Shown: positions 8,785-51,591 of the stretch, one piece after another
How positions within the stretch are numbered: the stretch's first letter is position 1
How the letters are laid out: the number at the start of each line of letters is the position of its first letter
Origin: an uncultured Candidatus Saccharibacteria bacterium
Lineage (GTDB): Bacteria > Patescibacteriota > Minisyncoccia > Phycocordibacterales > UBA2100
Assembly: GCA_964584225.1 (NCBI GenBank)
Contig: CAZOZG010000002.1
Span: 5,127-69,126 of the forward strand
Reading direction: 5' to 3'
DNA: 64,000 bases
The notes under the pieces: generated by a model
Databases searched by the model: none
What the model saw: the letters and a program-made list of their open reading frames with translations, nothing else
What the model was told of the DNA's origin: nothing
Program-made: the position numbers and the translations under genes

Positions 8785-10782
8785 TCAACCTTGTGCGGCC
8801 GCAGCTTGCTTGATCCACGCATCTTGATCGGCTTTGTTCGGATAGAGTGGCGCGAGCGTCTGTCGTGCGCCTGTCTCATCGCCGACCCACAGCTGCGCCT
8901 GCGCGTAGTATTGACGTGCTTGATCATTTTCCGGCAACTCTTCAAAGGCTTGCTTGAACGACGCGACTCCGGCTGCTTTGTCGCCAAGGCGGAATTGATT
9001 GGTGCCAAGTTGGTAGAGAATCGTTTGCTTCGCTGGTGAGAGTTTGTGTGCTTGCTCGAGTGCGATTTCTGCATCTTTATAATCGCCGTACGAATCCAGC
9101 AGCACACCTAAGAAAAGCGGAAAGCGCGCATCCAAGGGCGACGCCTGCATCTGCAACGTCATTTCTTGCGCCGCGGTCTCAAAGAAATTTTTCTTTGCAT
9201 CGGTTGAAATATTTGGATTACCTGCGATCTGCGCCGCGGCTTGAATGAGCTGTTCGCGCGCTTCTTGCGTGCCGTAGGTGCCGTACGCAATTGCTTGTTT
9301 GAAGTACGTGAGGTTTGTGTTGATATCAGATTGCTGCGCGAGAGCATTCAAGAGCGTTTTGTTCTCGAGATACGCATGTCCATTCACGTTCCATGCAGCG
9401 ACGCAAAACAGCACCAGCGCAGCGAGCGAGGCGTATGGCAAGAGATGCCGCGCCGAGAAAGACGTCTCGACAAGCGGCATCGTGCTCTCGTGCGTGCTCG
9501 CGCGCCACGCGATAAACGCAATCACACTCGTGAAGAGAATGTAGCTCGTAACGTTATCGAAGACGAAAAGATCGTGGAAGAAGTACGCGGCGAGTAATCC
9601 TGTGAGAATACTTTGCTCGGCAGCGCTAAAGACGTCGCGTCGCCACACAAGATAGAGTGCCGCAACAAAGATCGAGAGATAGCTCAGCAGTCCCAAGAAA
9701 CCGCCTGCAACGAGCCAGTCGAAGACAACGTCGTGCGTGCGATCAAACCACTGCTCTTGCCCATACATGCGTGGATCGTAGTACTTGTCGAACACAATCG
9801 CGTAGTTTTCTTGCCCCCAGCCCAAGAGCGGTCGCTCTTTCGCACCTTGCCACGCCATGCCCCAATTCAAGAAGCGCGCTTTCACCGTACTATCGGTGAG
9901 CGAAATTGATGAGAGGCGGTTCAAGAATCCGATGTTTTGTACAAACGCACTTTGACGATTGACGTAGATCAGTGCTCCTGCAACGACGAGTGCAACCACG
10001 ACACCTGCTGTCCACCACGCAGCTTTCGAGCGACGCGTCCGCACTGCGAAGAGAAAGAGCGCGATCAAGCCGCCACCGATAAGCCCGAGCGTCGTGCCGC
10101 GCGTGCCAGTGAAAAGGAGCGCCACCGTGTCGACAAAAATGACGATTGCATACCACGCCGACATCCAGCCGCGCATGCCCGCCTTTTCCTTTTGCCACGC
10201 ATTTGCCCAGAGCATCGCGGCGATGAAAATATTGAAAAGCATGTACGCTGCGAGATAGATCGGGTTGCCAAAGGTCGCGTCGATGCGCGCTGAAAGGCCG
10301 CCCGAGCCACCTTGCCCGAGAGCTGCATCCCCCAAAATCTGCGCGAAACCCCAGAAAGCAACCAAGACAGACAAGAGAAGCGACATTTCCCAAAAACGTC
10401 GCCAGAGCTTTTCCGTATTGAGCGTCGTATACGCAACGATGAAGTAGAGCAAGAGATGCATCTGCGTCACCCACCCATCCATGCGCTCGTAATTACTCCA
10501 AAAGCTTTTGAAGGGCACTGCGCCTTGTGCGTCCGCGATCGCGATGACGAGCACAAAAAGCGCAAACGCTCCCAAAAGCAAGGAACGCTTCGGCCAGTAG
10601 GCAGGATTACACAGTGCAAGCGCAAGCCACGCACATGCGATTAATTCAACGATGAGGCGGAATAGAAAATTCTTTCCGGTGATGAACGGAAAGAAAAGAT
10701 CGTAGGCGACGTAAAAGACAATGAAGGGAAGTGCGAAGACGCCAACGATGACGATGCCGCGTAGAAACTTCTCAAGCGTCAT
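8785..10782 (-). CDS. O-antigen ligase (Wzy_C) domain polytopic membrane protein with C-terminal TPR repeats.
   Basis: A 665-aa polytopic membrane protein matching the layout of the O-antigen ligase/Wzy_C family (multiple TM helices plus a large periplasmic loop). The C-terminal approximately 200 aa show a TPR-like pattern (AYLENKTLLNALAQQ...YYAQAQLWVGDETGARQ). Stop codon is TGA. Confidence 0.55.
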   Translation of the reverse strand: MTLEKFLRGIVIVGVFALPFIVFYVAYDLFFPFITGKNFLFRLIVELIACAWLALALCNPAYWPKRSLLLGAFALFVLVIAIADAQGAVPFKSFWSNYERMDGWVTQMHLLLYFIVAYTTLNTEKLWRRFWEMSLLLSVLVAFWGFAQILGDAALGQGGSGGLSARIDATFGNPIYLAAYMLFNIFIAAMLWANAWQKEKAGMRGWMSAWYAIVIFVDTVALLFTGTRGTTLGLIGGGLIALFLFAVRTRRSKAAWWTAGVVVALVVAGALIYVNRQSAFVQNIGFLNRLSSISLTDSTVKARFLNWGMAWQGAKERPLLGWGQENYAIVFDKYYDPRMYGQEQWFDRTHDVVFDWLVAGGFLGLLSYLSIFVAALYLVWRRDVFSAAEQSILTGLLAAYFFHDLFVFDNVTSYILFTSVIAFIAWRASTHESTMPLVETSFSARHLLPYASLAALVLFCVAAWNVNGHAYLENKTLLNALAQQSDINTNLTYFKQAIAYGTYGTQEAREQLIQAAAQIAGNPNISTDAKKNFFETAAQEMTLQMQASPLDARFPLFLGVLLDSYGDYKDAEIALEQAHKLSPAKQTILYQLGTNQFRLGDKAAGVASFKQAFEELPENDQARQYYAQAQLWVGDETGARQTLAPLYPNKADQDAWIKQAAAAQG

Positions 10783-10822
10783 GGTGGGTATTCTAGCAAG
10801 AGCTGTTGTGGACCGCTAGCGC

Positions 10823-11884
10823 TTAGAGCGGCTTGATCGTGACCGCTGATTTCTGATTTTTGAGCGCAGTGCGCAAGACCTCTATCACGCGCACGCCGCT
10901 TTCGATTGCGATCGGAGAATCTACAGGCTTCAGCTTCCCTTTCAGGATTGCGTCGATGTGTCGGACTTCACGATAAAAATCGTCGGGACGTTTTTTGTCG
11001 AAAATCTTCACATCTTCCTTTCCTTCGGCATCTTTCCATTTCACGACGTCGCCACGCGGGTCACCGTTGCAGTACCATTCGATGTAGCCCGCGTCGCCTT
11101 GGACGCGCGCCCACTTGCGGGTCGGTTGCGTCACGACATCTTGAATCACACGACCTACTTTTCTTTTGTCGGTGACGAAAGTGAATGCCGCAATCGCATC
11201 GTACTTCGTCTTGCCTTGCTTTTTCATATCGTAGATTGCAGTCATCGACTTCCATGTGCCGAGTCCTGCCGCGCGTGCGAAGAGTTGCCACAGGTGCAAT
11301 GCGTGTGAATGCTCGCCTGAAGCTCCACCACCGCGATCGATATAGCCGAGGTAGGTGTCCTCTGGACCTGAAAGCCACGGATGCGCTTTGAAAATGCCCG
11401 CCCAGTGCTCGCGAAATTCGACGTCGAGTGTGAGCACATCGCCGATCGGCTTTTTCTTGAGTAGATCAACGATGAAGGTGACCGCCTCCGCGACGCCGTG
11501 GTCGTAACCGACGAGAAGAATCGTCCCCTGTTTTTTTGCGGCAGTGACGAGCTCTTTCAATCCTTTGCCTTCTGGCCCGCACAGCGGCTTTTCAAGCAAC
11601 ATTAATTTCGGTTTGCCTTTCAGCTCCTCAAGCGCAACGCGCATGCGCACATCTGGCGGCGTGCCGATCATCACGATGTCGTATTTCCCTTTTGGCTCTT
11701 TGCCTGCGACGAATTGTTTGATAGATGAATCCCATTTTCCGTAGCGAGTCGGGTAAATGTCCTCGCGCATGCGCTGCAGTGCGGCTTGGTCGCGATCGGT
11801 CACGGTTACCTTCCATCCGATTCTGCGCGCCGCTTGCGCCAAGTGGTTTCCGATCGACCCCGCGCCGATAACTTTGGCGTTCAT
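10823..11884 (-). CDS. Gfo/Idh/MocA-family NAD(P)-dependent sugar oxidoreductase.
   Basis: Rossmann start KVIGAGSIGNHLAQAA and the family EKPL motif (LLEKPLCGP). Confidence 0.5.
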   Translation of the reverse strand: MNAKVIGAGSIGNHLAQAARRIGWKVTVTDRDQAALQRMREDIYPTRYGKWDSSIKQFVAGKEPKGKYDIVMIGTPPDVRMRVALEELKGKPKLMLLEKPLCGPEGKGLKELVTAAKKQGTILLVGYDHGVAEAVTFIVDLLKKKPIGDVLTLDVEFREHWAGIFKAHPWLSGPEDTYLGYIDRGGGASGEHSHALHLWQLFARAAGLGTWKSMTAIYDMKKQGKTKYDAIAAFTFVTDKRKVGRVIQDVVTQPTRKWARVQGDAGYIEWYCNGDPRGDVVKWKDAEGKEDVKIFDKKRPDDFYREVRHIDAILKGKLKPVDSPIAIESGVRVIEVLRTALKNQKSAVTIKPL

Positions 11885-11968
11885 GATGAAGGGATACTAA
11901 CAGCTGCAACACAATCAGCAAGTACTAAAAAGAAGAGGGCGCCCCGCAGGGCGCCCTCACAGTATTCG

Positions 11969-12532
11969 TCACGAGACTTCGTACTGCTCCAGATCCAGGA
12001 AAATATCATGCGCGATATGTTCCGCATCACGTGCAGCGTTTACAATTGTCGGCTGAATCTCCGGAGGCCACGGTGTTTGGATCGTGAGCGCCCAGTGATA
12101 CTGCTCTAGCGTTTTGATGGGCGACACGGAATTCTCCCGCGCGCGCATGGCGATGCTTTTTTTGATTTCCTCTTCGGAAGAAACTTCCAAGCGAAAGAAA
12201 CGCATCGGCACATTGCTGTGTGCTTGCGAGAATTGCAGCACCGGGTCTTTAAACTGCTGCCGCGAACACGTGCCTGAGAACACGATAGGCATGCCGCGGT
12301 GCAGCTGGGCGCTTGCTTCGCCACACGCAAGTTCATAGACGCGCGCCATGAGCGCAATCTCTTCCTCTTTGGGTAAGAGCTGCCCCGACGCATCCAAAAA
12401 ATGAGATCGACGCACCACGTCGACATCAATGGAGACTAGGTTCGAATGCTCGCTCATGTATTTGGCGACAGTCGATTTTCGATGTAGCGGCGGTCCTGTG
12501 AGGAACGCCACAAGAGGCCTATATTCAGGCAC
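11969..12532 (-). CDS. P-loop kinase-like (AAA_33/gluconokinase-like) small protein with a degenerate Walker A. Candidate sugar kinase.
   Basis: LVAFLTGPPLHRKST fits G-x5-KST rather than GxxxxGK[ST]. About 187 aa and alpha/beta-like. Confidence 0.3.
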   Translation of the reverse strand: MPEYRPLVAFLTGPPLHRKSTVAKYMSEHSNLVSIDVDVVRRSHFLDASGQLLPKEEEIALMARVYELACGEASAQLHRGMPIVFSGTCSRQQFKDPVLQFSQAHSNVPMRFFRLEVSSEEEIKKSIAMRARENSVSPIKTLEQYHWALTIQTPWPPEIQPTIVNAARDAEHIAHDIFLDLEQYEVS

Positions 12533-12577: not shown

Positions 12578-13219
12578 TTAGGACGCAGATTGTGTCAAGA
12601 TTTCCAACAACTCGCTCAATTGCGAAATCGATTTGATGCCTGTCCCCTCCCAGCGCGAGCCAAAGCCCACGAATTGACAACCAAACGTGTGCGCCGCATC
12701 TGCGTCGCCTTCGGTGTCGCCGACAAAAAGCGTATCCAAGACAGGCACATGCGCGTGCTGCACAATCCGCCCAAGATTTTCCACTTTGTTGCGCGGCGTT
12801 CCGTATATTCCTTTAAAAAGAGGTGCGACGCCAAGTGCGTGGATGCTTTCCTGCAGCACTTCTTCCGGCGTGAGCGAATTCACGTACAAAGGAATTTTCT
12901 GCGAAAGCACCGTCATGGCCTGCCGCGCATCATCCGACACTCTCAGTTGGCGCACGCGCTTATCGACGACTTCGCCGTATCTGCGGACATACTCAGCGAC
13001 TTTCGCGTCGATCGCGTCTGTCTCTCCCATGCGCTCAAAAACGCCGCGGATGATATCGGCTCGATTTCCGCGTCCTGTGAGATCGGCACGCGCAGAATCA
13101 ATCTCGCGTTTCGGCACGGGCTCACCAAATTCACTAAACATAAGAGAAAAGCCCTGCTGCTTGATGGGCTCCGAATCCACGATCACGCCGTCGAAATCAA
13201 GAACAAGTGCTTTGATCAT
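12578..13219 (-). CDS. HAD-superfamily hydrolase/phosphatase.
   Basis: HAD motif I MIKALVLDFDGVIVDSEP, and motif IV acidic residues in VGDTEGDADAA. Confidence 0.7.
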   Translation of the reverse strand: MIKALVLDFDGVIVDSEPIKQQGFSLMFSEFGEPVPKREIDSARADLTGRGNRADIIRGVFERMGETDAIDAKVAEYVRRYGEVVDKRVRQLRVSDDARQAMTVLSQKIPLYVNSLTPEEVLQESIHALGVAPLFKGIYGTPRNKVENLGRIVQHAHVPVLDTLFVGDTEGDADAAHTFGCQFVGFGSRWEGTGIKSISQLSELLEILTQSAS

Positions 13220-14767
13220 CTAGTCGAATTGATGCCGACCCCAGTTGTTAAGTTTTGTCTTTCGCTCTTCACGTGCCATTTTAGCAATTTTTGGATCTTC
13301 GTACATCGAGTCATCATTGTGGTGCGTCGTCGATATCTCTTCAAAAATCGCACCAGTTGTCGTCCAGAATTTATGCTTCACGCCGCGCTGAATGATTTGG
13401 AGATCGCCCGGGCGCAGCGTCTTCCGGCGTCCATCGAGTTCCATTTCCAATTCGCCCGCGAGCATATGAAATGCCTCTTCCTTTTTGAGGTGGTGATGAA
13501 AGGGATGTACCTGGCCCGGCAATTGAATGAGAATTTTCTTGCAGTACTCGCGATTGATGCAATCGATGATGACGACACCGTACTTGTGGAAATTTTCGAG
13601 CCCATAGTGATGCGAAAGTTCGACTTCAAATTCCGGCGTGATCGGCACGCCCGCTTCATTGAGCATACCTTTCACTGCGTGAATCGCTTGGTAGATTGTG
13701 TGCTTGCGAGAAAAGCCATCGACGCGCACTTTCTCGCTGACAGCTTCGTCTTTTTTATAATTCTTATCAGCGATTAAGCCGTTGAGAAGACGCCCACTGG
13801 GGAGCTGCCCTTTCTCGATCGGAAACGCAAAATAAACATCTGCCGCTTTGATCTCATCGCCCTTCTTGATCGGCTTTTTGGCGAAGACGCCGCGCATCAA
13901 CGACGCAAGATCTTCCTGCTCTTTCTTTTCGAGCTTTTTCTCGCGCGAACCCACCGCGTCCCTCGCGCGCTCCCATGCCTCTACCCATTTCTCGGTTTGC
14001 TCCGGCGTCGCGGAGTACGCATTGAGCTTTATTTCCGGCGTCGCGACACCAACATGTTTTTCATACATGCGTGCACCTTTCGCGTACGCCATCTGAATAT
14101 TCTCGACATTCTCTGGCGATTCGTGTGTTGAAAAACCGACGACCAGATTCGGGAAACGCTTTTTCAAAACGGTGATTTGTTCGAGCTGCAATTTCTCGGT
14201 GGGGGTCGGATAGATCGAGACACAATGCTGAATCGCAAAATGCACATAGCGGTGGTCGAAAAATGTCACGACGTCGTCGATGCGCTTCAGCGGCAGGCCA
14301 CCAAACGAGATGATCACGGGCTTTTTGGCTTCTGCGATTTTCTGCAGGAGTGGGAAATCGGTCGCCGATGCACTCGCGACTTTCAAGACGTCTGCACCGA
14401 GTCGATCCGCCGTTTCCACGGACTTTTCGTCGAAAGGCGTCACCATTACAATCAATTTTTCTTTGCGCGCCGCCGCGATCAGCTCTTTGAAGTGTTGTTC
14501 TGAAAGACGCGTGGAGAGAAATCGTGGCACGTGTTTGTTGTCGGTCTTTTTGAGATGCTTGGGGTGCACGAACGTATCAAGATCGCGGAACTGGAATTTA
14601 ATCGCTGCCTTCAGCTGGTGCTTTTTGGCAATCGCCCCGATCGCCTTGATGATTTTCTTGCCGTGCGCGACCGAGCCCTGATGGTTGTTGGCCATCTCAA
14701 AGGTAAAGAGGTCGTTGAAGTCGAAACGCTCTGTCGGCTCAAGTTGCATGCCGGCACTATGCATCAA
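13220..14767 (-). CDS. NeuB-family nonulosonic-acid (sialic-acid-type) synthase fused to SAF and a C-terminal cupin domain.
   Basis: NeuB-like TIM-barrel N-terminus (FDFNDLFTFEMANNHQGSVAHGKKII...AIKFQ), an SAF-like segment, then a cupin (QVHPFHHHLKKEEAFHMLAGELEMELDGRRKTLRPGDLQII). 515 aa against about 350 for a stand-alone NeuB. Confidence 0.65.
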   Translation of the reverse strand: MMHSAGMQLEPTERFDFNDLFTFEMANNHQGSVAHGKKIIKAIGAIAKKHQLKAAIKFQFRDLDTFVHPKHLKKTDNKHVPRFLSTRLSEQHFKELIAAARKEKLIVMVTPFDEKSVETADRLGADVLKVASASATDFPLLQKIAEAKKPVIISFGGLPLKRIDDVVTFFDHRYVHFAIQHCVSIYPTPTEKLQLEQITVLKKRFPNLVVGFSTHESPENVENIQMAYAKGARMYEKHVGVATPEIKLNAYSATPEQTEKWVEAWERARDAVGSREKKLEKKEQEDLASLMRGVFAKKPIKKGDEIKAADVYFAFPIEKGQLPSGRLLNGLIADKNYKKDEAVSEKVRVDGFSRKHTIYQAIHAVKGMLNEAGVPITPEFEVELSHHYGLENFHKYGVVIIDCINREYCKKILIQLPGQVHPFHHHLKKEEAFHMLAGELEMELDGRRKTLRPGDLQIIQRGVKHKFWTTTGAIFEEISTTHHNDDSMYEDPKIAKMAREERKTKLNNWGRHQFD

Positions 14768-14822: not shown

Positions 14823-15560
14823 TTAGAGTTTCCGCTGTCGCTCGCGCAGCAGCATTTCTGCGAGACGAAAATCGAGTTCAGTATCAATATTGACCGAATG
14901 ATCGAGGGTCATCTCGAAATAGCCGAGGCGTTTCCCTGAAGTCGAGTGTTGTTTCAAAATCGTATCGCGACGCATCACATCCATCGCGCCCGTATGCACG
15001 TAGACTTTCGGAAAAAGTTGCCTCGGCAAATTGTGAGGCTCATCGTGACCCGTCACTTCTTTCGGCAAAAACGGCTCCAGGTGTTTCCCGTCTTTTGCGA
15101 TCCGCCACAGTTTGTACGGATGCTTCGGCGCTTCGTGAATTGGTCGTACCGCGTCGAGCGTCGCATCGTTCAAAAGTGTATCGATGCCGTGATCGATGTC
15201 GTCAGTGGTGCACAAGGGCGACGTCGGCGGCAGTCGCAGGACGACATCGGGTTCGTAGCCCTCTTTTTCTTTTAAAGTCTTGAGCGCGTGCGTGAGAAAT
15301 TCGACGTCGGTCGAACGGTCTTGAGAAATATGTTCTGGCCGCATAAACGGCACTTCGGCTCCAGATTCTTTTGCGACCTTTGCGATCTCTGTATCGTCCG
15401 TAGACACAATCACGCGCGTGACACTCTTCGATCCCTTCGCCGCCTCGATCATCCAGACGATCAAGGGCTTGCCGGCAATCATGCGAACATTTTTCCGCGG
15501 CAGGCCTTTTGAGCCACCGCGGGCTGGAATAACGGCGAGGATTTCCATATATAGCCGCAT
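14823..15560 (-). CDS. Acylneuraminate (CMP-nonulosonate) cytidylyltransferase family, NeuA/KdsB-like.
   Basis: MEILAVIPARGGSKGLPRKNVRMIAGKPLIVWMIEAAKGS matches the CMP-NeuAc synthetase N-terminal motif. An alternative ATG lies at 15548. Confidence 0.7.
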   Translation of the reverse strand: MRLYMEILAVIPARGGSKGLPRKNVRMIAGKPLIVWMIEAAKGSKSVTRVIVSTDDTEIAKVAKESGAEVPFMRPEHISQDRSTDVEFLTHALKTLKEKEGYEPDVVLRLPPTSPLCTTDDIDHGIDTLLNDATLDAVRPIHEAPKHPYKLWRIAKDGKHLEPFLPKEVTGHDEPHNLPRQLFPKVYVHTGAMDVMRRDTILKQHSTSGKRLGYFEMTLDHSVNIDTELDFRLAEMLLRERQRKL

Positions 15561-15580
15561 TATAGGCTCTTTCTCGGGTA

Positions 15581-15609
15581 TTGCAATAGATACGCATTCG
15601 TGTTAGAAT
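15581..15609 (+). promoter_or_regulatory. Sigma70-like promoter for the plus-strand gene at 15659.
   Basis: TTGCAA (15581..15586), 17-nt spacer, TAGAAT (15604..15609). GGAGG lies 5 nt before the GTG start, inside a 98-bp divergent spacer. Confidence 0.45.
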
Positions 15610-15658
15610 GCTGACCGCTTAAAGAGTCACAAAATCCACAGAAAGAACGGAGGTTCAC

Positions 15659-18079: not shown

Positions 18080-18804
18080 GGTTTTTGTGCGACGAGAATG
18101 TGCGAGACACCGAAAGGCAGATTGAGTCGGCGATTCACTGATCGCTCGACATCGATAACGTGCGCTAAGATGCCGTTGATCCAGGCAGGAATCCGCGACA
18201 AGCTGTTTGATAGTTTCTCGCCTTCAGGTTTTTTGTGATAGAAGCGCGCTACAAGCCATACCACCGGAAACATACAGATGTTCCAAAAGCCACTGTAGCG
18301 AATCTGCATGTTGTTGCGCGCAAAGAGTCCGACGAGTTCGCCACGCTTGTAGCGCCTGAGATGATGCCCGTAATCATCGTTTTCATTCCAGAGCGACGGA
18401 AACGCCGGCACCAATATGTAGGCCGAACCGCGCGACTTCAAGACGCGCGCGATCTCGGCAACCGTTTTCGTGTCGTCGATGTGTTCGAGTACGTCAGCGC
18501 AGACGATCGCGTCGACCGAATCACTGGGAAGCGGAATGTCTTCGGCTGAGGCAAGTAATGTTTCGTGATAGCCACGCGCACGCGCGTGTGCGAGCGCTTC
18601 TTCTGAAATATCGAGCCCAATCACTTTCTGAGCGTGAACGGCAAGGACGGGAAAATTCGCACCGACGCCGCATCCAAGATCCAATAGGACGCCGCGCTCT
18701 GCGGGAAAGCGCTCGAGCAAATCATTGAGGACGCGTCGGCGCGATACGTACCACCAACTCGTTTCTTCAAAGCCGGCAATTTCCTCGTGGCTATACGTTT
18801 CCAT
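18076..18804 (-). CDS. Class I SAM-dependent methyltransferase.
   Basis: Motif I LLDLGCGVGANFPVL, and post-I acidic residue VIGLDISEE. Confidence 0.7.
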   Translation of the reverse strand: METYSHEEIAGFEETSWWYVSRRRVLNDLLERFPAERGVLLDLGCGVGANFPVLAVHAQKVIGLDISEEALAHARARGYHETLLASAEDIPLPSDSVDAIVCADVLEHIDDTKTVAEIARVLKSRGSAYILVPAFPSLWNENDDYGHHLRRYKRGELVGLFARNNMQIRYSGFWNICMFPVVWLVARFYHKKPEGEKLSNSLSRIPAWINGILAHVIDVERSVNRRLNLPFGVSHILVAQKP

Positions 18805-44719: not shown

Positions 44720-45610
44720 TTATTTTCGCACCTTTTTCGCTTTCGCGCCTTTCAAAACACTTTTGCCGTATACGCCCTCCAACAGGTCGAGGTCTTTGTG
44801 CGTGGACGTGAGGAGCTCAATGTTTTTCGCTTCCATTGCCTTCAAAACCTCGAATGCGCGTTTGTCATGCGGAAGATGCTTTTTGAAAAGTCGGCTCAAT
44901 GCCGCGACATCTTTGATGAAGCAACCACCGCCTGCGCCACGGCCGCTTTTGTGCACCGGGTTGCTGTAGCGATTCGAAATCAACGGATCCGCTTTGATCG
45001 CGCGATTCACCACGTCCCAGTTGGCCCCGAATTGCTGCGCGAGATCGTACATGAGGTTGAAGAGAATCACTTGCGTGTAGCCGCTCGCGTTGTGTGTGTA
45101 TTTGAAAATTTCTGCCTCGGCACTTTTCACAATTTCCGAGTGCGGCGCTTTCGGAAGCGTTTTCATCACGCGTTCCGCGGCCATGTAGTGTTTCGCATCA
45201 GAGACTGGTAGACCGACGAGATTGACGAACGGGTGCGCAGCATCGTGCACGTGCGACGCAATCGAGAGGAACTCGGGTCCAAACAACACAATCCGATCGG
45301 AGAATTTCTTCTGCAACATTTCTGTCGTGCCCGGCAAAATCGTTGATTTGATGACGGCAATTTTTCCCTTGCCGACGAGCGGAATCACGCTCTGCACCAC
45401 AGAGATGTCGAAACCTTTCGGCGTCGTCGGCGTCCAGACTGCAATGAAAACAATGTCGCAGTCTTTGATTTTGTCTTTATTTTTGATCCACGGCTTTTCG
45501 AGCGAGTAACGCACGACCTCATAGCCGCGCTCCTCGTAATTATCCGCGTATGCTTTACCGATCCAGCCCTGCCCGATGAAACCAATGCGAGGCTTGCCGT
45601 TTTTCGCCAT
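44720..45610 (-). CDS. UDP-glucose/GDP-mannose 6-dehydrogenase family protein, short form lacking the C-terminal nucleotide-sugar-binding domain.
   Basis: RIGFIGQGWIGKAY, KSTILPGTT, FGPEFL, and catalytic Cys block GRGAGGGCFIKDVAAL. The protein ends about 45 aa after the Cys; total 296 aa. Confidence 0.55.
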   Translation of the reverse strand: MAKNGKPRIGFIGQGWIGKAYADNYEERGYEVVRYSLEKPWIKNKDKIKDCDIVFIAVWTPTTPKGFDISVVQSVIPLVGKGKIAVIKSTILPGTTEMLQKKFSDRIVLFGPEFLSIASHVHDAAHPFVNLVGLPVSDAKHYMAAERVMKTLPKAPHSEIVKSAEAEIFKYTHNASGYTQVILFNLMYDLAQQFGANWDVVNRAIKADPLISNRYSNPVHKSGRGAGGGCFIKDVAALSRLFKKHLPHDKRAFEVLKAMEAKNIELLTSTHKDLDLLEGVYGKSVLKGAKAKKVRK

Positions 45611-45636: not shown

Positions 45637-46773
45637 CTATACGCAAGCCTGAATGTCGTCGACGTAGCTTCTCAGATATTCATCAAAATTTTTGTATGGA
45701 TATTCCTTGAGCACACCGGTCCGCGAGCCATCTTTGAACCATTGCGCGAGAGCGTCGGCGAAGCCGGCTTCGGTCGTGACGATTGCGCCTACTTCTCGGG
45801 CAATCCCAACGTCGGTCGACAATACTGGTTTGCCGGCGGCGAGTGCTTCCACGATCACGAGTCCGTACCCTTCGTACTTCGAAGGAACGAGAACGAGATC
45901 CGAAAGTCGGTAGTGTGGCCCAGGATCTCGAGTCTCCTCGAAGAACACGCGATCTGCGACGCCAAGATCGCGTGCGGCGCTCTCGAGCGCCGCACGCTGA
46001 CCTCCCTTTCCAATAATGATCAAACCGGTGTCACTCGGTGCGCTCTGCGCGAAAGCGCGGATCGCAAGTGCGACATTTTTTTCCGGTTCAAGACGAGCGA
46101 CCACAAGAAGTTTCGTCGCAAATTTTCCAAAACGTCTAATCAAATCAGGGTTATGCTCGATGTGCGCGAAGCGATCAACATCAGCGTAAATCGGCAACAC
46201 GACGACGGGTGACGCCAGGTTGAAACGCGTTTCGATGCTTCGTTTGATGTGTTCGGAGACGACGCGCACTCGCGACGCGCGACGCAGCACGTATCCGGCA
46301 ATCCAAACGCGCACGCGATTTACGAGTGAGAGCCGCGCGAACGCTGGCGCCAGAAAATCCGTGTGCACTTGCACATGCAATTTCGCGCCCAGGCGCTCTG
46401 CGATTTTCAATCCTGCGTAGCCGGTTTCAAACGGATCCTGTACCGTGACGATATCGGCTTTCTCAAGCGCACGACCGATACGTATCGCATCAAAAATCCT
46501 GCGAACGCGCGATGATGAATTGGTCGGAATGAGCATCACTGAGCCGATCGTCTCTTTTTTGTACGAGCCGCCGCACATCACGATGATGTCGACGCGTGAG
46601 AAGAAACGCGTATACGCCAAAATGCGCTCCCGCACTTTTGAATTTTTGTCAAAAACTGCCGTCTCCGTACCTACAACGATGAGCGATTGTGAGCTATGAT
46701 GCTCCGAATGAAACGATTGCTGCTTCGCGCCGCCGGTTGTGTCGGCTTGCCCGCTGTGTTCAGATTCTTCCAT
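45637..46773 (-). CDS. GT4 glycosyltransferase. The start is uncertain; the track ORF extends to 46914.
   Basis: EGYGLVIVEALAAGKPVLSTDVG. The N-terminal domain begins near SLIVVGTETAVF. Confidence 0.6.
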   Translation of the reverse strand: MEESEHSGQADTTGGAKQQSFHSEHHSSQSLIVVGTETAVFDKNSKVRERILAYTRFFSRVDIIVMCGGSYKKETIGSVMLIPTNSSSRVRRIFDAIRIGRALEKADIVTVQDPFETGYAGLKIAERLGAKLHVQVHTDFLAPAFARLSLVNRVRVWIAGYVLRRASRVRVVSEHIKRSIETRFNLASPVVVLPIYADVDRFAHIEHNPDLIRRFGKFATKLLVVARLEPEKNVALAIRAFAQSAPSDTGLIIIGKGGQRAALESAARDLGVADRVFFEETRDPGPHYRLSDLVLVPSKYEGYGLVIVEALAAGKPVLSTDVGIAREVGAIVTTEAGFADALAQWFKDGSRTGVLKEYPYKNFDEYLRSYVDDIQACV

Positions 46774-47682
46774 AGAAATACGTTGACAATCGTACTCTAT
46801 CACGGCGTCGCGCCGAAGCGCGACATCGGCAAAGAAAACAATCTGTATAATTACCGCGGCAAATATATCGCGCCGGAAGATTTTGAATGGCAAATGCAGT
46901 ACATCAAAAAGCATTACACTGTGCTCGATCTTGAAAAAGCGCTTTCACGGATGCGCGAAAATACGCTGCCGAGAAATGCACTCGCGATTACCTTTGACGA
47001 TGGTTACCGGAATTTTTACGATTACGCGTATCCGATTCTCAAAAAAAACAACCTGACGGCGACGATGTTTTTAGTGAGCGACTTTGTGCTCGAAAAGAAA
47101 CCGCTGTGGGTCGATAGACTCGAGTATGCTATGGGTAACTTGAAGATCGAACGCGCAGAGAAAATAAAGAAAGACTCTGTTATGCGTCAGGAGTTGAAAC
47201 GAGCTAGCTCTGTCGAGCGGGAACAACGTTTGAGGGCGCTTGAACAAGAAACCGGCGCGCTACTTTCCGATTTTGACGGCGAAAAAGCAGTGTATGCGCC
47301 ACTTTCGGTCGAACAGATGCAGGAAATGCGCGCGCTAGTCTCCTTCGGCGCGCATACAAAAACGCACCCAATCCTGAGCACAGAATCAAGCACCGACGCC
47401 GAGCGCGACATCCGCGAATCGAAAGAATCTCTTGAGCGGGCACTCGGAAAGCTCTCATCAGTGTTTGCCTATCCCAACGGACAGCCCGGCGATTGGACTG
47501 AAGCAAACGAGCAATCGCTCAAGAGACTTGGTTTTACCTACGCTCTGACGACGACCGAGGGGACAAACACGAGCACGACACACCCTTTTCGACTCACCCG
47601 AGTTGTGTTAGACAGTACCAATCGCTCCGGTGCATTTGCAGCAATCCTCACTGGCGTGCGATCATTCTTGAAATCACTATGA
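46696..47682 (+). CDS. Polysaccharide deacetylase (NodB-homology) family.
   Basis: ALAITFDDGYRNFYDYAYPILKKNNLTATMFLV...FGAHTKTHP. Confidence 0.7.
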   Translation: MMLRMKRLLLRAAGCVGLPAVFRFFHRNTLTIVLYHGVAPKRDIGKENNLYNYRGKYIAPEDFEWQMQYIKKHYTVLDLEKALSRMRENTLPRNALAITFDDGYRNFYDYAYPILKKNNLTATMFLVSDFVLEKKPLWVDRLEYAMGNLKIERAEKIKKDSVMRQELKRASSVEREQRLRALEQETGALLSDFDGEKAVYAPLSVEQMQEMRALVSFGAHTKTHPILSTESSTDAERDIRESKESLERALGKLSSVFAYPNGQPGDWTEANEQSLKRLGFTYALTTTEGTNTSTTHPFRLTRVVLDSTNRSGAFAAILTGVRSFLKSL

Positions 47683-48428
47683 CCACGCGCACAGAAGTCA
47701 CTTTTTTCAACGACACGAGTAATTCCTATCTCGCGGAATACCAGCGTGAGACGCCGGAAGGCTACTCGTTTCGCGTGCGCCGCGAAAAAGTCTTAGCGAT
47801 GTTGCCCGAAGGCAGTGGCAAAAAGATTCTCGATCTCGCTTCAGGCCCTGGGACCATGATCAAGGGTCTCCGAGCGAAAAACTACGATGTGACCTGCGTC
47901 GACGCGGCGCCCGACATGATTGAGCTTGCAAAAAAAGAAGCGAGCACCGACCCGTACGTCGTGTGCGAAGTTGGCGACGCATACGGATTGCGTTTCGCCG
48001 ACAATGCTTTCGACATCGAAACCGCAATGGGACTTATCGAATATCTCGACGACGAACACAAGTATTTGAATGAAGTAAAACGCATCGTAAAACCGGGCGG
48101 CACTGCCATTATTACGTTCCCGAATATCTGGAGTCCGTGGCGCGCGTGGAACCGCGTATTACGCGCCGTTCGCAATAGTGTAAAGCCACACAAAGCAACA
48201 GGCCTCCTGCATCGCGAATACACTGCAAAACGCGTACGCGCGCTCATGGACGAACACGGTTTTGATACTGTAGATGTGTTGTACTACAACCTCAAACTTG
48301 TTCCCTACCCCTTGGATCGGCTGTTCCCGCGGTTTACTGTGTGGTTCTCTCACGTGTGCGAGAAACTCGACAGGACACCGTTGCGCTGGTTTGGCACTGC
48401 TTTTATCGTTGAGGCACGCAAGCGCTAG
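47679..48428 (+). CDS. Class I SAM-dependent methyltransferase.
   Basis: KILDLASGPGTMIKGL...DVTCVDAAPDMIE. Confidence 0.65.
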   Translation: MTTRTEVTFFNDTSNSYLAEYQRETPEGYSFRVRREKVLAMLPEGSGKKILDLASGPGTMIKGLRAKNYDVTCVDAAPDMIELAKKEASTDPYVVCEVGDAYGLRFADNAFDIETAMGLIEYLDDEHKYLNEVKRIVKPGGTAIITFPNIWSPWRAWNRVLRAVRNSVKPHKATGLLHREYTAKRVRALMDEHGFDTVDVLYYNLKLVPYPLDRLFPRFTVWFSHVCEKLDRTPLRWFGTAFIVEARKR

Positions 48429-49405
48429 ATCAGCTCGAGCATTTCGCGCGCGACATCTTTGTACATACGTACTGTTTTGAATGCTCTGACTCGCTCGCAC
48501 AGTGCCTGATACTTCGACGTATCTGCCAAATCTTGTATGCCGCTGATCATGTCTGATTCACTTAATGGATCGACAATGACACCGTATTCGCGGAATTGTT
48601 CGGCGTAGCCCGAATATTTCGTGAGGAGAAACGGTTTGCCGCAGCGTAAGGCGTCGATGACAGAATTCGGGGCGACGTCAGAGATCGAAGGGACGGCAAC
48701 GGCGTGTGCACGCGCAATGCGTGAAAAAAGCTCATCGCGACTCATGCTGGAGAGTTCGACGAGGGAAAGATTCGTATGTGCAGCCTCGAATGCTTTTCGG
48801 AACGCAGATTGATTTTTTAGCTTCAGATTGCGACCGAAGACAAGTACCTCGCCGCTTGATTCCTGTGGTGCGATGCGCTCGGGTATCACATTCTCGACAA
48901 CATGACAGCGCGCTTCGTCTAAATCATAGTAATCCTCCCATACGTTGATGAGCCAGCGTGTATTGAACACGAGCGTCGCGTGATTGAGCATCCAGCGCAC
49001 CGAGCGAAATGCTACCCGTTCTTTATTGTTCAACCGATCTAAATGTTCATACAGTTGCGGAAGTGGCACAAGATCACCGGTGCGCTCGACATAGGATTCC
49101 CACGCGAAATCGCCTCCGACACGGATAAGTACCGGCTTACGCAATAGCATGCCGACGAATGCCGCAGGCACACCGACACTGTACGTATCGAATGCAAAAA
49201 TCGCATCGGCACCGACCGACGCGAAGAAGAGTTTGATCCCATACAAAAGGTGGCGAACGCCACTTGGCAATTTGCGCAGCGAACCGAACAACACGAGCGG
49301 GGCCCGGTGCCCGGATGCTTCAAGCGCTTTTTTTACACCTTCAGCATAGAGCGCAGGCCCACCGATTTCTGGCGGGTAAATTCCCGTCGCAATCACAATC
49401 CGCAT
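48425..49405 (-). CDS. GT4-like (GT-B) glycosyltransferase.
   Basis: MRIVIATGIYPPEIGGPALYAEGVKKALEASGH. The start is the internal ATG 49405; the track ORF is 50 codons longer. Confidence 0.5.
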   Translation of the reverse strand: MRIVIATGIYPPEIGGPALYAEGVKKALEASGHRAPLVLFGSLRKLPSGVRHLLYGIKLFFASVGADAIFAFDTYSVGVPAAFVGMLLRKPVLIRVGGDFAWESYVERTGDLVPLPQLYEHLDRLNNKERVAFRSVRWMLNHATLVFNTRWLINVWEDYYDLDEARCHVVENVIPERIAPQESSGEVLVFGRNLKLKNQSAFRKAFEAAHTNLSLVELSSMSRDELFSRIARAHAVAVPSISDVAPNSVIDALRCGKPFLLTKYSGYAEQFREYGVIVDPLSESDMISGIQDLADTSKYQALCERVRAFKTVRMYKDVAREMLELI

Positions 49406-49647
49406 GAGAAATAGACTACAGCAAAGCGAAGAGGCGCGCCATGCGCGCCTCCGCATATAGTACTCACTCCGCATGAAGCCATCGCCCCATCGGAGTCTGG
49501 GTGTAGTCGTGTACCGCTTGCGCAGACACCTGCGCACACGCGACGTACCATTCATACCACCATCCGACGTTGACCCAGTAGAAAAATGCTGCCATGGCTG
49601 ATCCTCCTACTGCCGACAGCAAACACCCGAACTCGACCGGGCGCAAG

Positions 49648-50868
49648 TCAGTTATCCGCTCGTCGTGCAGTGTCAAAGAGACGCGATTGCGCACGCGCGA
49701 TCAAGTTCCAGTCGTATTTTTCCACCACCAGGGCGCGCGCGTTTTTGACTATGCGAGCGACGAGCGCCGGGTCATCAAGGTATCGTCGAACCGCGGCAGC
49801 GACCGATTGCGGATCGCGGACATTGCAGAAAAGTCCCGTCGGTTCATGTTCAGGATTTCTATCTGGATCGAAGAGAAAATCCGGAATACCGCCGACTGGC
49901 GTCGCGACGACAGGAATGCCCGCGGCGAACGCTTCGACAAACGCGCTCCCCATGCCCTCGATAATCGACGGGCGGACAAAAATATCTGAAATCCTTAAAA
50001 GCGCCGGAATGTCTGTGTGATCGATGCTTCCGGCGAAGATAACGCGGCCTGACGCGATTTTATTCGCATGTATTTCGAGTTTACCGCGATCTTCCCCATC
50101 GCCAGCGATCAACAACTTCACATGCGCCGGAAGATGTGGGAGTGCAGCGATAATATCTTCGACGCCGCGCGAAAGCACCAAGCGAGATGCAGTAAACAAA
50201 AACACGTCACCCATTCTTTTATCAAATCGTTTCTTCAAGTCTAGTAGTTTTTGATCGTCAATCGGCGCGGAAAATTGTGCGACGTCGACTGCGTTTGGAA
50301 TGACATCGATCGGCCCATGATAGCCAATGTCGCGCGTCAATCGCTCGATGAAATTTGAAATTACTTTGATTCGGTCCGCTCGCCTATATATGGCCCTATA
50401 GAGACCCCAGATTGCTCGCAGCAACGGCTGGCGATCCTTGATTTGCTGCAGGGAATTACCGTCCTGGAGCTCAAGCACGTACGGAATATTTCTGTGCACG
50501 AGCTTGAAAAAGAGTGCTCCGAATCCTGCTTGGTTGGCCAGCATCGCCCAGACGACATCGTATCGATTCGCCTGATTGAGCGAGAGCGCTTTGAAAAACG
50601 ACGTAACAGGAAAAAGGATTTTCGCGACCTTGCATTGCCAAGGCATCGCGCGATCGGAAATCTTCGGATGATCCGCGGTGAATCCAATGCGATAGACGGT
50701 AATGTTCCCTACCTTTTCGACGCGCGGAAGATTGCGATCGAATCGGAGTGTAATCATGTCAAAGGTGTACTCATTCGGACTGATCCGATCGGTGATTTCT
50801 TTCATCGCAAGTTCTGCGCCACCCACATACGGCACATACGCGAGCGAAAATATGAGGACTCGTTTCAT
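49648..50868 (-). CDS. GT4 glycosyltransferase.
   Basis: MKRVLIFSLAYVPYVGGAELAMKE...EGMGSAFVEAFAAGIPVVATPVGG. Confidence 0.7.
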   Translation of the reverse strand: MKRVLIFSLAYVPYVGGAELAMKEITDRISPNEYTFDMITLRFDRNLPRVEKVGNITVYRIGFTADHPKISDRAMPWQCKVAKILFPVTSFFKALSLNQANRYDVVWAMLANQAGFGALFFKLVHRNIPYVLELQDGNSLQQIKDRQPLLRAIWGLYRAIYRRADRIKVISNFIERLTRDIGYHGPIDVIPNAVDVAQFSAPIDDQKLLDLKKRFDKRMGDVFLFTASRLVLSRGVEDIIAALPHLPAHVKLLIAGDGEDRGKLEIHANKIASGRVIFAGSIDHTDIPALLRISDIFVRPSIIEGMGSAFVEAFAAGIPVVATPVGGIPDFLFDPDRNPEHEPTGLFCNVRDPQSVAAAVRRYLDDPALVARIVKNARALVVEKYDWNLIARAQSRLFDTARRADN

Positions 50869-50879
50869 TTGTATCGCGG

Positions 50880-51320
50880 CTATTTTACGAGCCCGAACAG
50901 CAAGCGCGAAATCGCGTCTCGACTTTTGATTGCGTTTTCCTTGATTTGTTGATATCGCTTCCTCAATTCGTCACGCTCGGCCGCCAAGTGGGATTGCTGT
51001 GCGCCGGTCGCGCTCGGCAACATGTCGTCATAGCCTGCCATAGCTGCTTGAAACCGACGATCGGTAACTACATCACCTAAATCATTTATCGCACTGTATG
51101 CGGTTTCCGATTTTTTCATCGCGGCCGAGACGGTTTCAAAAAATCCAGCTGATTGTTGGTCTCCCGATTTCTGCTTCAAGAAATTTGTTGCGACACCGTA
51201 GCCAAGCGCAGCGAATATGCGGGCGATTTCACCGGGCCCTCGCGCCGACTGCCGCTCAAATGTCTGCCACGGTTCGGCTTTGCTTTCAGGCTTTTCTGTT
51301 GTGCGTGGTCGTTCAAGCAT
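50880..51320 (-). CDS. Hypothetical soluble protein.
   Basis: 146 aa with no recognisable motif. Overlaps the next gene by 8 nt. Confidence 0.3.
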   Translation of the reverse strand: MLERPRTTEKPESKAEPWQTFERQSARGPGEIARIFAALGYGVATNFLKQKSGDQQSAGFFETVSAAMKKSETAYSAINDLGDVVTDRRFQAAMAGYDDMLPSATGAQQSHLAAERDELRKRYQQIKENAIKSRDAISRLLFGLVK

Positions 51321-51591
51321 AGCTTTCGCTCAATGTCTTTTCTTCCGCTAGGGCGGCGTCCCACTTGGTCAGATTATTTTCGTTCAGCGCTTCGTGTTTC
51401 TGCCGAATGTTTTTCGTTGCAGTTGCGACGTGCGCTCGGTCTTCACTGAGAAATTGGACCAACTCATCGCAGTATTCTGGCGGGAGCGTTGCGACGACTT
51501 GTTGCCACAGATCTAGATCCGAACGGGATACGCCGTATGCCGGATCACTCACGATCTCTATAATCGATTGCGCAGTACCCATACGCTGCAT
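51313..51591 (-). CDS. Hypothetical small acidic protein.
   Basis: 92 aa, first gene of a two-gene unit. Confidence 0.3.
   Translation of the reverse strand: MQRMGTAQSIIEIVSDPAYGVSRSDLDLWQQVVATLPPEYCDELVQFLSEDRAHVATATKNIRQKHEALNENNLTKWDAALAEEKTLSESYA

Follow-up and report, generated by a model that had tools for sequence, protein, structure and literature searches.

A modular cassette locus at a fixed site beside secA, probably the main surface-glycan biosynthesis locus of an uncultured patescibacterial genome

What does a bacterium with a very small genome build with some forty adjoining sugar genes, and do these genes form one system, several neighbouring systems or a mobile element? The question is raised by a 64,000-nucleotide stretch of DNA (the window; contig CAZOZG010000002.1 of assembly GCA_964584225.1, positions 5,127 to 69,126 of the forward strand) deposited as an uncultured Candidatus Saccharibacteria bacterium, in which an earlier note had outlined a contiguous surface-glycan island at positions 8785-51591. 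In this study, all long open reading frames (ORFs) of the window were covered by a Pfam profile scan, NCBIfam and PDB-sequence searches were added for the key enzymes, and all window proteins were compared by tblastn with 80 SecA-anchored loci of relatives (relatives' loci and contigs carry L numbers below). The region is a modular glycan locus, a mosaic of self-contained cassettes between a VirD4/TrwB-like ATPase gene on one side and a Wzy_C/TPR-secA gene pair on the other. We consider it probable that this mosaic at 8785-53064 is the main surface-glycan biosynthesis locus of the genome, with the supply and assembly mechanism proposed below. From the genome sizes of relatives (about 0.7-0.9 Mb), it would occupy about 5% of the chromosome.

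The site is recognised by its flanks. On the left lies secA (5947-8451, minus strand; Pfam SecA domains), whose product is closest to those of Candidatus Kaiserbacteria and other Paceibacterota metagenome-assembled genomes, with up to 78% identity to the best Kaiserbacteria relative. The SecA comparison places the genome with the Kaiserbacteria (Paceibacterota), a tiny-genome, groundwater-type lineage of the candidate phyla radiation (CPR). Next to it, gene 8785-10782 (minus) encodes an O-antigen ligase/polymerase-like membrane protein (Wzy_C 75.5 bits, cut-off 31.7; 11 hydrophobic segments) with a C-terminal TPR part (TPR_19, 27 bits), which was the only part matched among PDB sequences. An ortholog of this Wzy_C/TPR protein adjoins SecA in about 60 of the 80 relatives (46-60% identity in the close ones), and the backbone of an HTH gene, GatB, SecA and Wzy_C/TPR is conserved, with the ATPase gene at the opposite side. 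Because the Wzy_C/TPR gene is kept beside secA while the adjoining sugar genes differ, it belongs to the backbone and not to the variable cargo. The right flank is the gene of the VirD4/TrwB-like coupling ATPase (53105-54934, minus; TrwB_AAD_bind 35 bits, TraD/VirD4 models), which stands outside the glycan machinery; no other type IV secretion genes were recognisable in the window, and the 398-aa ORF beside it (54986-56182) had no family match.

Between these flanks, the length and content of the interval vary. Orthologs of the ATPase with 54-68% identity are found 1.4-6 kb from SecA in L041, L048, L050, L055, L068, L069 and L074 (in L043, the ortholog has 40% identity). The gap between ATPase gene and secA is 1.4-1.8 kb in L048 and L069, that between ATPase gene and Wzy_C/TPR is 1.8 kb in L050 versus 42 kb in the window, and across relatives the ATPase-secA interval ranges from about 1.5 kb up to the 44 kb of the window. 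The 10 kb beside Wzy_C/TPR hold differing sugar genes in the closer relatives. The region is a fixed site with changing content rather than a mobile element. No integrase-type signs of a mobile island were found in the window, edge repeats were not found, and direct and inverted repeats were only short and at chance level; neither the tRNA scan nor the Rfam scan gave a match in the window. Composition likewise gives no support for a recent foreign origin, the GC content of the island genes (0.529±0.021) and of the flanks (0.522±0.039) being alike. The word island in the earlier note therefore holds in the comparative sense, as a variable block with conserved flanks, seen across the 80 loci.

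The cassettes of the window occur separately in other genomes. A CMP-sugar cassette is present in L020, L095 and L100 beside Wzy_C/TPR-SecA and in the order of the window (GFO oxidoreductase, HAD phosphatase, NeuB-cupin synthase, cytidylyltransferase, with or without a GT-B-fold protein, and TagB-like transferase), and its main genes recur in L101 in a locally different order. A set consisting of GT-C glycosyltransferase, ArnC-like GT2, AsnB-type amidotransferase and two methyltransferases is collinear in L101 and partly so in L027. The order RmlB, RmlA, C-methyltransferase, single-domain dehydratase and ketoreductase is found again in L083-L085 (60-77% identity), and the dehydratase-ketoreductase pair, mostly with the C-methyltransferase, in 11 of the 13 contigs L081-L093. 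Finally, Gmd, a nucleotidyltransferase-cupin fusion and a C-methyltransferase are often directly beside Wzy_C/TPR (e.g. L006, L036).

How far does the locus extend, and of what does it consist? Carbohydrate-related genes are nearly unbroken over 8785-53064 (about 44 kb and about 42 genes, according to the ORF list and Pfam). The right edge previously placed at 51591 coincides with the first position of a 92-aa ORF (51313-51591, minus), and glycan genes reach 53064 with a short-chain dehydrogenase/epimerase (SDR; 52195-53064, minus; Pfam Epimerase 124.8 bits; RmlB- and GalE-like models best in NCBIfam, all below cut-off). This last glycan-related gene is a candidate for an NDP-4-keto-sugar reductase. 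Two other small ORFs lie in the same part, 50880-51320 (minus, 146 aa) and 51667-52137 (minus, 156 aa, three transmembrane segments), both without a Pfam match.

The gene families assigned in the earlier note were nearly all reproduced by the Pfam, NCBIfam and PDB-sequence searches, and profile assignments disagreeing for the majority of genes were not seen. Its counts of glycosyltransferases stand: seven GT4 (two of them weak), two GT2 (one with a GtrA domain), one weak GT-A and three GT-C, the third of which is 0.4 bits under the cut-off. The Wzx flippase, the Wzy_C/TPR protein, two AsnB-type amidotransferases and one CE4 deacetylase were also confirmed by Pfam, and no Wzz or ABC exporter was found inside the island, as had been said (for Wzz, there is no Pfam match in the whole window). 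The five methyltransferases are actually six, and two of these are sugar C-3 methyltransferases of the TcaB9/MtmC type (26836-28017 and 37059-38321). The estimate of about 40 genes was close, with about 42 found, and the statement that almost all lie on the minus strand needs correction: eight of these are on the plus strand, changes of strand divide the locus into at least 11 blocks, and the longest co-directional run has 11 genes. Long operons joined by ATGA overlaps are borne out in part only, with three ATGA and one GTGA overlap between same-strand genes, many strand switches and internal promoter-like boxes. Beyond the genes then listed, the locus holds an EvaA-like dehydratase, a KijD10-like ketoreductase, a TagF/TagB-like transferase, an HAD phosphatase, a kinase-like protein and the GT-B-fold protein 15659-16660.

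Which sugars could be supplied? The CMP cassette is centred on a NeuB-family phosphoenolpyruvate-condensing synthase with an SAF domain and a C-terminal cupin resembling D-lyxose/mannose isomerases (13220-14767, minus; NeuB 141.5 bits, Cupin_2 43.7 bits). It reaches neither of the equivalog cut-offs (NeuB 148 bits, cut-off 400; PseI 127 bits, cut-off 340), and its best PDB match is the uncharacterised entry 3G8R (259 bits), with NeuB and PseI entries at 68-72 bits; by these scores, the synthase falls in a subfamily apart from true NeuB and PseI. The NeuB-SAF-cupin fusion (about 510 aa) is widespread in the CPR, including Kaiser-, Sung-, Uhr- and Magasanikbacteria. A 747-aa relative (entry P0202) additionally bears a CTP_transf_3 domain, and this favours a functional link of synthase and cytidylyltransferase. 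Genes of a GFO oxidoreductase and a phosphatase always accompany that of the fusion, and a kinase gene often does so too (AAA_33 here, APH in L101). In the window, these companions are a GFO/IDH/MocA-like NAD(P) oxidoreductase (10823-11884, minus; GFO_IDH_MocA 32.5 bits; orthologs of 74-76% identity in L020, L095 and L100), a P-loop kinase-like protein (11969-12532, minus; AAA_33 24.1 bits, below the cut-off of 27; no NCBIfam match), which is missing from the L020, L095 and L100 cassettes and specific to the cassette of this genome, and an HAD-family phosphatase (12578-13219, minus; HAD_2 49.9 bits), also located beside the NeuB-cupin gene in these three relatives. They are followed by a CMP-ulosonic-acid synthetase, i.e. 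a cytidylyltransferase (14823-15560, minus; CTP_transf_3 91.6 bits; PseF 139 bits, cut-off 205.7; KdsB models 44-64 bits). None of the upstream enzymes NeuC, PseB/C/H/G and LegB/C/H/G was found by Pfam among the window ORFs.

The cassette also has a TagF/TagB-like transferase (16706-18079, minus; Glyphos_transf 36.4 bits), which falls short of the cut-off of 200 with the NCBIfam model BFO_1060 (55 bits, E=7e-15) and matches no PDB sequence. Its orthologs (56-69% identity) are found in the cassettes of L020, L095, L100 and L101. Proteins of the BFO_1060 type are the Pse/Leg transferases of Tannerella forsythia (PMC5420450), and the window protein is a candidate transferase of a CMP-activated ulosonic acid. 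Taken together, the NeuB-cupin synthase, phosphatase, oxidoreductase and cytidylyltransferase would make a CMP-activated 3-deoxy-ulosonic acid (Kdn-, Kdo- or nonulosonate-like) via a phosphorylated intermediate, and the TagB-like enzyme would transfer it.

Within the same cassette, the plus-strand gene 15659-16660 encodes a GT-B-fold protein (AlphaFold2 pLDDT 93) of a family without a Pfam model. The family is small: a search of 5.8 billion proteins gave only 21 homologues, including one with 100% identity. A 3.3-kb Logan contig bears the gene, and exact-sequence searches with SecA, the nucleotidyltransferase-cupin fusion, the C-methyltransferase and the 2,3-dehydratase returned no source contig. 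Foldseek gave TM-scores of 0.66-0.70 to UDP-GlcNAc 2-epimerases (at 12-14% identity) and of 0.55-0.65 to GT4/GT28 enzymes. The gene keeps its cassette position in L020 and L095, and members of the family are located in CPR glycan loci (L095 10001-11044, L099 10001-11035 and L097 6402-7478); the neighbours are NeuB and a separate Epimerase_2 protein in L099, and Wzy_C, MurB and a deacetylase in L097. The protein would be a glycosyltransferase or a 2-epimerase-like enzyme, and these two gene contexts tentatively point to the former rather than to the missing epimerase. The minus-strand ORF 15560-16189, which overlaps this genuine gene, was rejected as spurious (Arg/Ser-rich, no family match).

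The dTDP cassette contains RmlB (30575-31627, minus; TIGR01181 431.3 bits, above the cut-off of 365.1) and a short-form RmlA-like glucose-1-phosphate thymidylyltransferase (29853-30602, minus; NTP_transferase 199 bits; TIGR01207 239 bits, cut-off 360, covering profile positions 1-236 of 286). For 29853-31627, a CDP-sugar pathway was considered and rejected: the scores with the rmlA and rmlB models are far higher than those with the CDP models (glucose-1-phosphate cytidylyltransferase 51 bits). The next gene encodes an EvaA-like NDP-hexose 2,3-dehydratase (29079-29852, minus; Hexose_dehydrat 205 bits, one copy; PDB EvaA 233.5 bits). Its likely start is the ATG at 29822, which gives 247 aa with a single copy of the Nudix-like domain, to which both halves of EvaA align in the PDB sequence comparison. 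The dehydratase is not truncated, because its relatives in L081-L093 have the same single-domain size (207-247 aa); in 11 of these 13 contigs a KijD10-like gene is directly downstream. A read-through fusion of RmlA with the dehydratase was likewise rejected, the two being separate, same-sized genes in relatives.

In the window, the downstream gene is a KijD10-like NDP-sugar 3-ketoreductase of 336 codons (28084-29094, minus; PDB KijD10 179.8 bits over residues 6-329), whose frame had to be reconstructed across one in-frame TGA at codon 49 (28948-28950, minus). The gene is uninterrupted in all 13 relatives L081-L093, which have Trp (8), Phe (3), Cys (1) or Ala (1) at this residue. Reassignment of the stop codon, considered for this TGA and for ORFs abutting in frame, was rejected: TGA ends 19 of the 55 genes and all three stops are used. 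Given the residues of the relatives, a change from TGG to TGA or an error of sequencing is likely; a nonsense mutation would be very recent, and a polymorphism among strains or low-level UGA read-through are further possibilities. The cassette also contains an NDP-sugar C-3 methyltransferase of the TcaB9/TylC3 type (26836-28017, minus; Methyltransf_13/14; PDB TcaB9 215.7 bits over the full length). RmlA, RmlB, 2,3-dehydratase, 3-ketoreductase and the TcaB9-like enzyme would together yield a 2,6-dideoxy-3-C-methylhexose of the mycarose type.

The GDP branch comprises Gmd (35954-36979, minus; Pfam GDP_Man_Dehyd 397.5 bits; TIGR01472 408.8 bits versus a cut-off of 415) and, divergent from it, a second, MtmC-like NDP-sugar C-3 methyltransferase (37059-38321, plus; Methyltransf_14 156 bits; PDB MtmC 157.8 and TcaB9 119 bits). 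Canonical ManC is not present in the window, and in its place stands a 268-aa protein in which a cytidylyltransferase-like nucleotidyltransferase domain with a HIGH motif is fused to a phosphomannose isomerase (PMI) cupin of type II (35146-35952, minus; CTP_transf_like 42 bits, MannoseP_isomer 69 bits; in NCBIfam, 71.8 bits for RfaE domain II and 61.7 bits for the GMP_PMI C-terminus). This architecture, a highly conserved CPR family typical of the clade, is shared by 6126 homologues, annotated only generically, with 62-75% identity among the best 120, and in many relatives the gene is directly beside Wzy_C/TPR-secA and divergent from gmd. The fusion may be a non-homologous replacement of the ManC nucleotidyltransferase domain and a supplier of GDP-mannose. 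With GDP-mannose possibly coming from it, Gmd and the MtmC-like methyltransferase would produce a GDP-6-deoxy-3-C-methylhexose.

Of the four activated-sugar pathways previously proposed, dTDP, GDP and CMP are solidly represented, and the UDP pathway is not: all that speaks of it is a short, 296-aa NDP-sugar-dehydrogenase-like protein (44720-45610, minus; UDPG_MGDP_dh central domain 53 bits, N-terminal domain 48.5 bits), in which Pfam found no C-terminal nucleotide-sugar-binding domain. It scores 104.5 bits with TIGR03026 (cut-off 189.8), and UDP-glucose dehydrogenases in the PDB match it with about 53 bits, only to about residue 300 of their 446-478.

Which enzymes could assemble these sugars? 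The GT4 enzymes are encoded, all on the minus strand, by 34017-35207 (Glyco_trans_1_4 77 bits, Glyco_transf_4 36 bits), 38318-39472 (71 and 51 bits for the same models), 41289-42365 (Glyco_trans_1_4 105 bits), 43702-44715 (GT4-like, C-terminal domain only, Glyco_trans_1_4 50 bits), 45637-46914 (Glyco_trans_1_4 88.8 bits, with an N-terminal transmembrane segment at residue 15), 48425-49555 (weak, Glycos_transf_1 33.1 bits) and 49648-50868 (Glycos_transf_1 107 bits, Glyco_transf_4 59.8 bits). A divergent putative GT-A (31661-32653, minus) has a DAD motif, a Glycos_transf_2 score of 20.5 bits, below the cut-off of 23.3, and no NCBIfam match. Next to it lies the Wzx-type MOP flippase (32650-34068, minus; Polysacc_synt_3 59 bits and Polysacc_synt 57 bits, above cut-off; NCBIfam MOP 46.9 bits; 9 hydrophobic segments).

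Modifying enzymes are spread over the locus. The first AsnB-type glutamine amidotransferase (19406-21262, minus) has Asn_synthase (342 bits) and GATase_6/7 domains and matches TIGR03108, the model of exopolysaccharide-associated amidotransferases, with 552 bits; the second (39528-41300, plus) has Asn_synthase (205 bits) and GATase_7 (138 bits) domains and reaches 395 bits with TIGR01536. S-adenosylmethionine (SAM)-dependent methyltransferases with Methyltransf_11 domains are encoded by 18076-18804 (minus, 80 bits), 26086-26799 (plus, 68 bits) and 47679-48428 (plus, 72 bits), and probably also by 18791-19405 (minus), which shows a weak, partial domain (31.1 bits) and has a 71% identical ortholog in L101. 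The CE4 polysaccharide deacetylase (46696-47682, plus; Polysacc_deac_1 80.4 bits) has a PgaB/IcaB-like N-terminal match.

A further group is encoded at 21266-26141. It includes an ArnC/PgfS-like GT2 polyprenyl-phosphate sugar synthase with C-terminal transmembrane helices (three transmembrane segments; 21266-22330, minus; Glycos_transf_2 118 bits), assigned at family level only (ArnC model 238.5 bits over 3-310 of 316, PgfS 171.5 bits, both below the equivalog cut-offs), and a second such GT2 synthase joined to a GtrA-like transmembrane domain (23577-24734, minus; Glycos_transf_2 109.5 bits, GtrA_DPMS_TM 68.7 bits; AglJ-like, 110.6 bits). Two GT-C enzymes are encoded next to them: a PMT_2/ArnT-like protein (22201-23580, minus; PMT_2 36 bits, PMT 28.3 bits) and a PMT_2 protein (24576-26141, plus; 55.8 bits), each with 8 hydrophobic segments. 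The true start of the latter gene is likely the ATG at 24756, divergent from the start at 24734 and with a TANNNT box 6 nt upstream. A probable third GT-C lies apart from these (42341-43705, minus; PMT_2 25.7 bits versus a cut-off of 26.1; 9 hydrophobic segments; weak LA_3751/2 match). The co-occurrence of Wzx/ligase-type and GT-C machinery stressed in the earlier note is a real pairing, and the usual account of it applies: as known from Gtr, Arn and Pgf, the GT-C enzymes would draw their donors from GT2 polyprenyl-phosphate-sugar synthases, one of which carries GtrA.

From these parts, the following assembly mechanism is proposed. The seven GT4 enzymes, the GT-A and the GT-B protein would assemble an oligosaccharide on polyprenyl phosphate, after the action of a priming enzyme encoded elsewhere, and the methyltransferases, AsnB-type amidotransferases and deacetylase would modify it (methylation, amidation, de-N-acetylation). 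Wzx would move the finished oligosaccharide across the membrane, where Wzy_C/TPR would transfer it en bloc or polymerise it. Outside the membrane, the three GT-C enzymes would add single sugars from polyprenyl-phosphate sugars made by the two GT2 synthases. Because the Wzy_C/TPR ortholog persists beside changing cassettes, we favour a ligase or oligosaccharyltransferase of relaxed specificity over a repeat-unit-specific Wzy polymerase. As the acceptor, a surface protein (S-layer or pili) is preferred, if tentatively, with Wzy_C/TPR acting in the manner of an O-oligosaccharyltransferase; a wall-linked polysaccharide is our second choice and the less probable one.

Several observations weigh against this proposal. 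Pfam found no priming phosphoglycosyltransferase (WbaP/Bac_transf or WecA/Glycos_transf_4) among the ORFs of the 64-kb window, although one may lie elsewhere, and no acceptor protein was identified. The NeuB-, PseF-, RmlA- and TagB-like proteins are all below the curated equivalog cut-offs, and the identities of the products are therefore inferences. For the dTDP branch, no RmlC/RmlD-type 5-epimerase or 4-ketoreductase was found in the window, the generic SDR 52195-53064 being the sole candidate; in the GDP branch too, no reductase or epimerase except this SDR could be assigned by the window scan, and the GDP specificity of the second C-methyltransferase is putative. The nonsense codon in the 3-ketoreductase may mean that the dideoxy branch is inactive here. 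The sequence of the Wzy_C protein does not separate the ligase, polymerase and oligosaccharyltransferase subtypes. Moreover, the cassettes may serve several separate glycoconjugates.

The strongest alternative is a Wzx/Wzy-dependent heteropolysaccharide, i.e. a capsule or secondary cell-wall polymer, with Wzy_C/TPR as its polymerase or wall ligase and proteins not serving as acceptors. Wzx, Wzy_C and many glycosyltransferases are the canonical polysaccharide set, and the window also holds murC and murD genes (Pfam), which show a peptidoglycan wall as a possible anchor. However, neither a Wzz/PCP co-polymerase nor an LCP-family ligase nor an export component was found in the window, and conservation of the Wzy_C/TPR ortholog amid differing cassettes is atypical for a Wzy specific to one repeat unit. 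We regard such a polymer as quite possible, but not as the likelier outcome.

It appears unlikely to us, though not strongly so, that the block is divided into independent neighbours with separate targets, namely Wzx-dependent oligosaccharide synthesis, protein glycosylation of the Pmt/Pgf kind and either a polymer of the TagF type or CMP-sugar capping. The cassette structure is compatible with such a division. The cassettes are separate in relatives, the at least 11 strand blocks come with promoter-like boxes at cassette starts, and the adjacent GT2/GT-C pairs are self-sufficient. Against this, a single flippase and a single Wzy_C protein are available for the whole block, and Gtr-type GT-C modules classically decorate a glycan that comes from a Wzx pathway. 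This division also overlaps with the cassette mosaic preferred here and leaves room for it.

A lipopolysaccharide (LPS) O-antigen cluster in which Wzy_C/TPR is the WaaL ligase joining O-antigen to lipid A-core is very improbable: Pfam names Wzy_C 'O-antigen ligase' and the sugar modules are O-antigen-like, but the 64-kb window is devoid of Lpx, Waa, Lpt and Wzz genes, the TPR extension is foreign to WaaL, and Paceibacterota and other CPR bacteria are described as having neither LPS nor an outer membrane. Just as little weight can be given to a glycosylated secondary-metabolite cluster, for which sets of 2,3-dehydratase, 3-ketoreductase and C-3 methyltransferase typical of antibiotic deoxysugar pathways and the best structural homologues from such pathways (EvaA, KijD10, TcaB9 and MtmC) could be quoted, since polyketide synthase, nonribosomal peptide synthetase, terpene and ribosomally synthesised peptide (RiPP) core genes are missing from the window, Wzx, Wzy_C, GT-C enzymes and polyprenyl-phosphate sugar synthases are present, and a 2,6-dideoxyhexose is known from a bacterial S-layer O-glycan (PMC5420450).

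How does the cassette mosaic compare with characterised systems? The protein O-glycosylation cluster of T. forsythia spans 27 kb, and its glycan contains a 2,6-dideoxyhexose (PMC6120980, PMC5420450). Both loci have Wzx, a CMP-ulosonic acid module adjoining a TagB-like transferase, glycosyltransferases, methyltransferases, AsnB and a NDP-sugar dehydrogenase-like gene, and in both, strain-variable content lies between conserved end genes. T. forsythia, however, is a diderm with a full PseBCFHGI or LegBCHGIF set, whereas the window has a divergent NeuB-cupin synthase, HAD, GFO and cytidylyltransferase only, and the T. forsythia cluster lacks Wzy_C/TPR, GT-C/GtrA modules and C-methyl sugar enzymes, all of which are present here; the resemblance of the TagB-like protein to BFO_1060 is likewise limited, at 55 bits against a cut-off of 200. 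The combination of a GT2 synthase, a GtrA-type module and an external GT-C is that of Gtr (O-antigen glucosylation in Shigella/Salmonella), ArnC/ArnT and Pgf of Streptococcus mutans (PgfS/PgfM1/PgfM2), from which the window differs in the fusion of GtrA to the second GT2, in the three GT-C paralogues and in sub-equivalog scores.

As in actinomycete dTDP-mycarose and dTDP-olivose pathways, the dTDP cassette contains RmlA, RmlB, a 2,3-dehydratase, a GFO-family 3-ketoreductase and a SAM-dependent C-3 methyltransferase in order. It differs in its dehydratase (a single domain of about 247 aa, compared with the two domains and 471 aa of EvaA), in the lack of a 5-epimerase and a dedicated 4-ketoreductase, in the nonsense codon of its ketoreductase and in its setting in a CPR surface-glycan locus. 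The GDP branch resembles the GDP-virenose route of the Coxiella burnetii O-antigen, which has been proposed largely in silico (PMC3539893, PMC3204966): Gmd is located beside a TylC3-type C-methyltransferase, implying a GDP-6-deoxy-3-C-methylhexose. Unlike that route, the window lacks canonical ManC, ManB and the reductase, with the cytidylyltransferase-like/PMI-cupin fusion at the ManC position.

In its logic, the locus follows known O-antigen, capsule and protein-glycosylation loci, and it is no new kind of system, although several of its enzymes are under-characterised. Variable O-antigen and capsule loci at fixed sites are familiar from E. coli (galF-gnd) and pneumococci (dexB-aliA). The window shares with them conserved flanks, cassette-like variable content and a Wzx/Wzy-type core, and differs in the flanks themselves (secA/Wzy_C-TPR and the VirD4-like ATPase gene) and in its CPR host of about 0.7-0.9 Mb. 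In general terms, it has already been stated that Patescibacteria are rich in genes for glycosyltransferases and surface modifications and that rml and gmd genes occur in their phages (PMC12911398). A full-text literature search found no paper on Kaiserbacteria glycosyltransferases or Parcubacteria nonulosonic acids.

Does the locus point beyond this genome? A broader and rather doubtful reading is that the Wzy_C/TPR protein beside secA is a general O-oligosaccharyltransferase or ligase of relaxed specificity across Kaiserbacteria and Paceibacterota, and that the TrwB-secA interval is a hot spot of glycan diversity under selection by phages and host attachment. The cassettes exchanged there would, with the same reservation, carry uncharacterised enzyme variants (the single-domain 2,3-dehydratase, the NeuB-cupin ulosonic-acid synthase acting via phosphorylated intermediates, the cytidylyltransferase-fold/PMI-cupin replacement of ManC and the new GT-B family). 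If this were true, the surface proteins of ultra-small episymbionts would bear C-methyl deoxysugars of the antibiotic type together with sugars resembling sialic acid. CPR bacteria (Patescibacteria) have very small genomes and depend on attachment to other cells, and surface display probably shapes their choice of partner and sensitivity to phages. The interval from TrwB to Wzy_C/TPR-secA offers a marker locus for comparing surface diversity across Kaiserbacteria and yields a list of testable enzymes.

The start regions of the genes indicate how the cassettes could be expressed. At 19 of 55 gene starts, a TANNNT box ends 5-10 nt ahead of the start codon, compared with 5% of all ATG trinucleotides (p ~1e-11); two of these starts were picked partly by the motif, and the unbiased count is 17 of 53. 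Shine-Dalgarno-like motifs precede only 4 of the 55 starts. The boxes lie, for example, upstream of the starts at 10782, 11884, 21262, 24734/24756, 31627, 36979/37059, 39528, 53064, 54934, 59365 and 61620. They match cassette boundaries, and several are directly at internal gene starts. This pattern points to leaderless transcription where transcription units begin. A generic promoter and terminator scan gave nothing above the shuffled expectation. The best match in the scanned 13 kb is a sigma-70-like TTGACT-17-TATAAT (11/12) at 52192-52164 (minus), located 27 nt upstream of ORF 51667-52137, the first in a series of small ORFs and two GT4 genes.

Some minor features of the window remain to be mentioned. 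Positions 1-1454 have a GC content of 0.45-0.47, below the rest of the window, and contain no ORF of at least 100 aa and no tRNA or Rfam match. Between this segment and secA, the gene 4022-4939 (plus) encodes a Gly_rich_2-domain protein with a signal-like N-terminus (GC 0.61, compared with 0.46-0.53 in its neighbours); the start of the longest gatB ORF overlaps with it, and gatB probably begins at the ATG at 3946. Towards the other end, ORF 61725-62387 (plus; Arg/Ser-rich, no family match) looks spurious. An inverted repeat of 22 nt (91% complementary, 4-nt loop) is located at 56778-56825, at the convergent ends of a glyoxalase-like gene and a TP_methylase gene, and is probably a bidirectional terminator.

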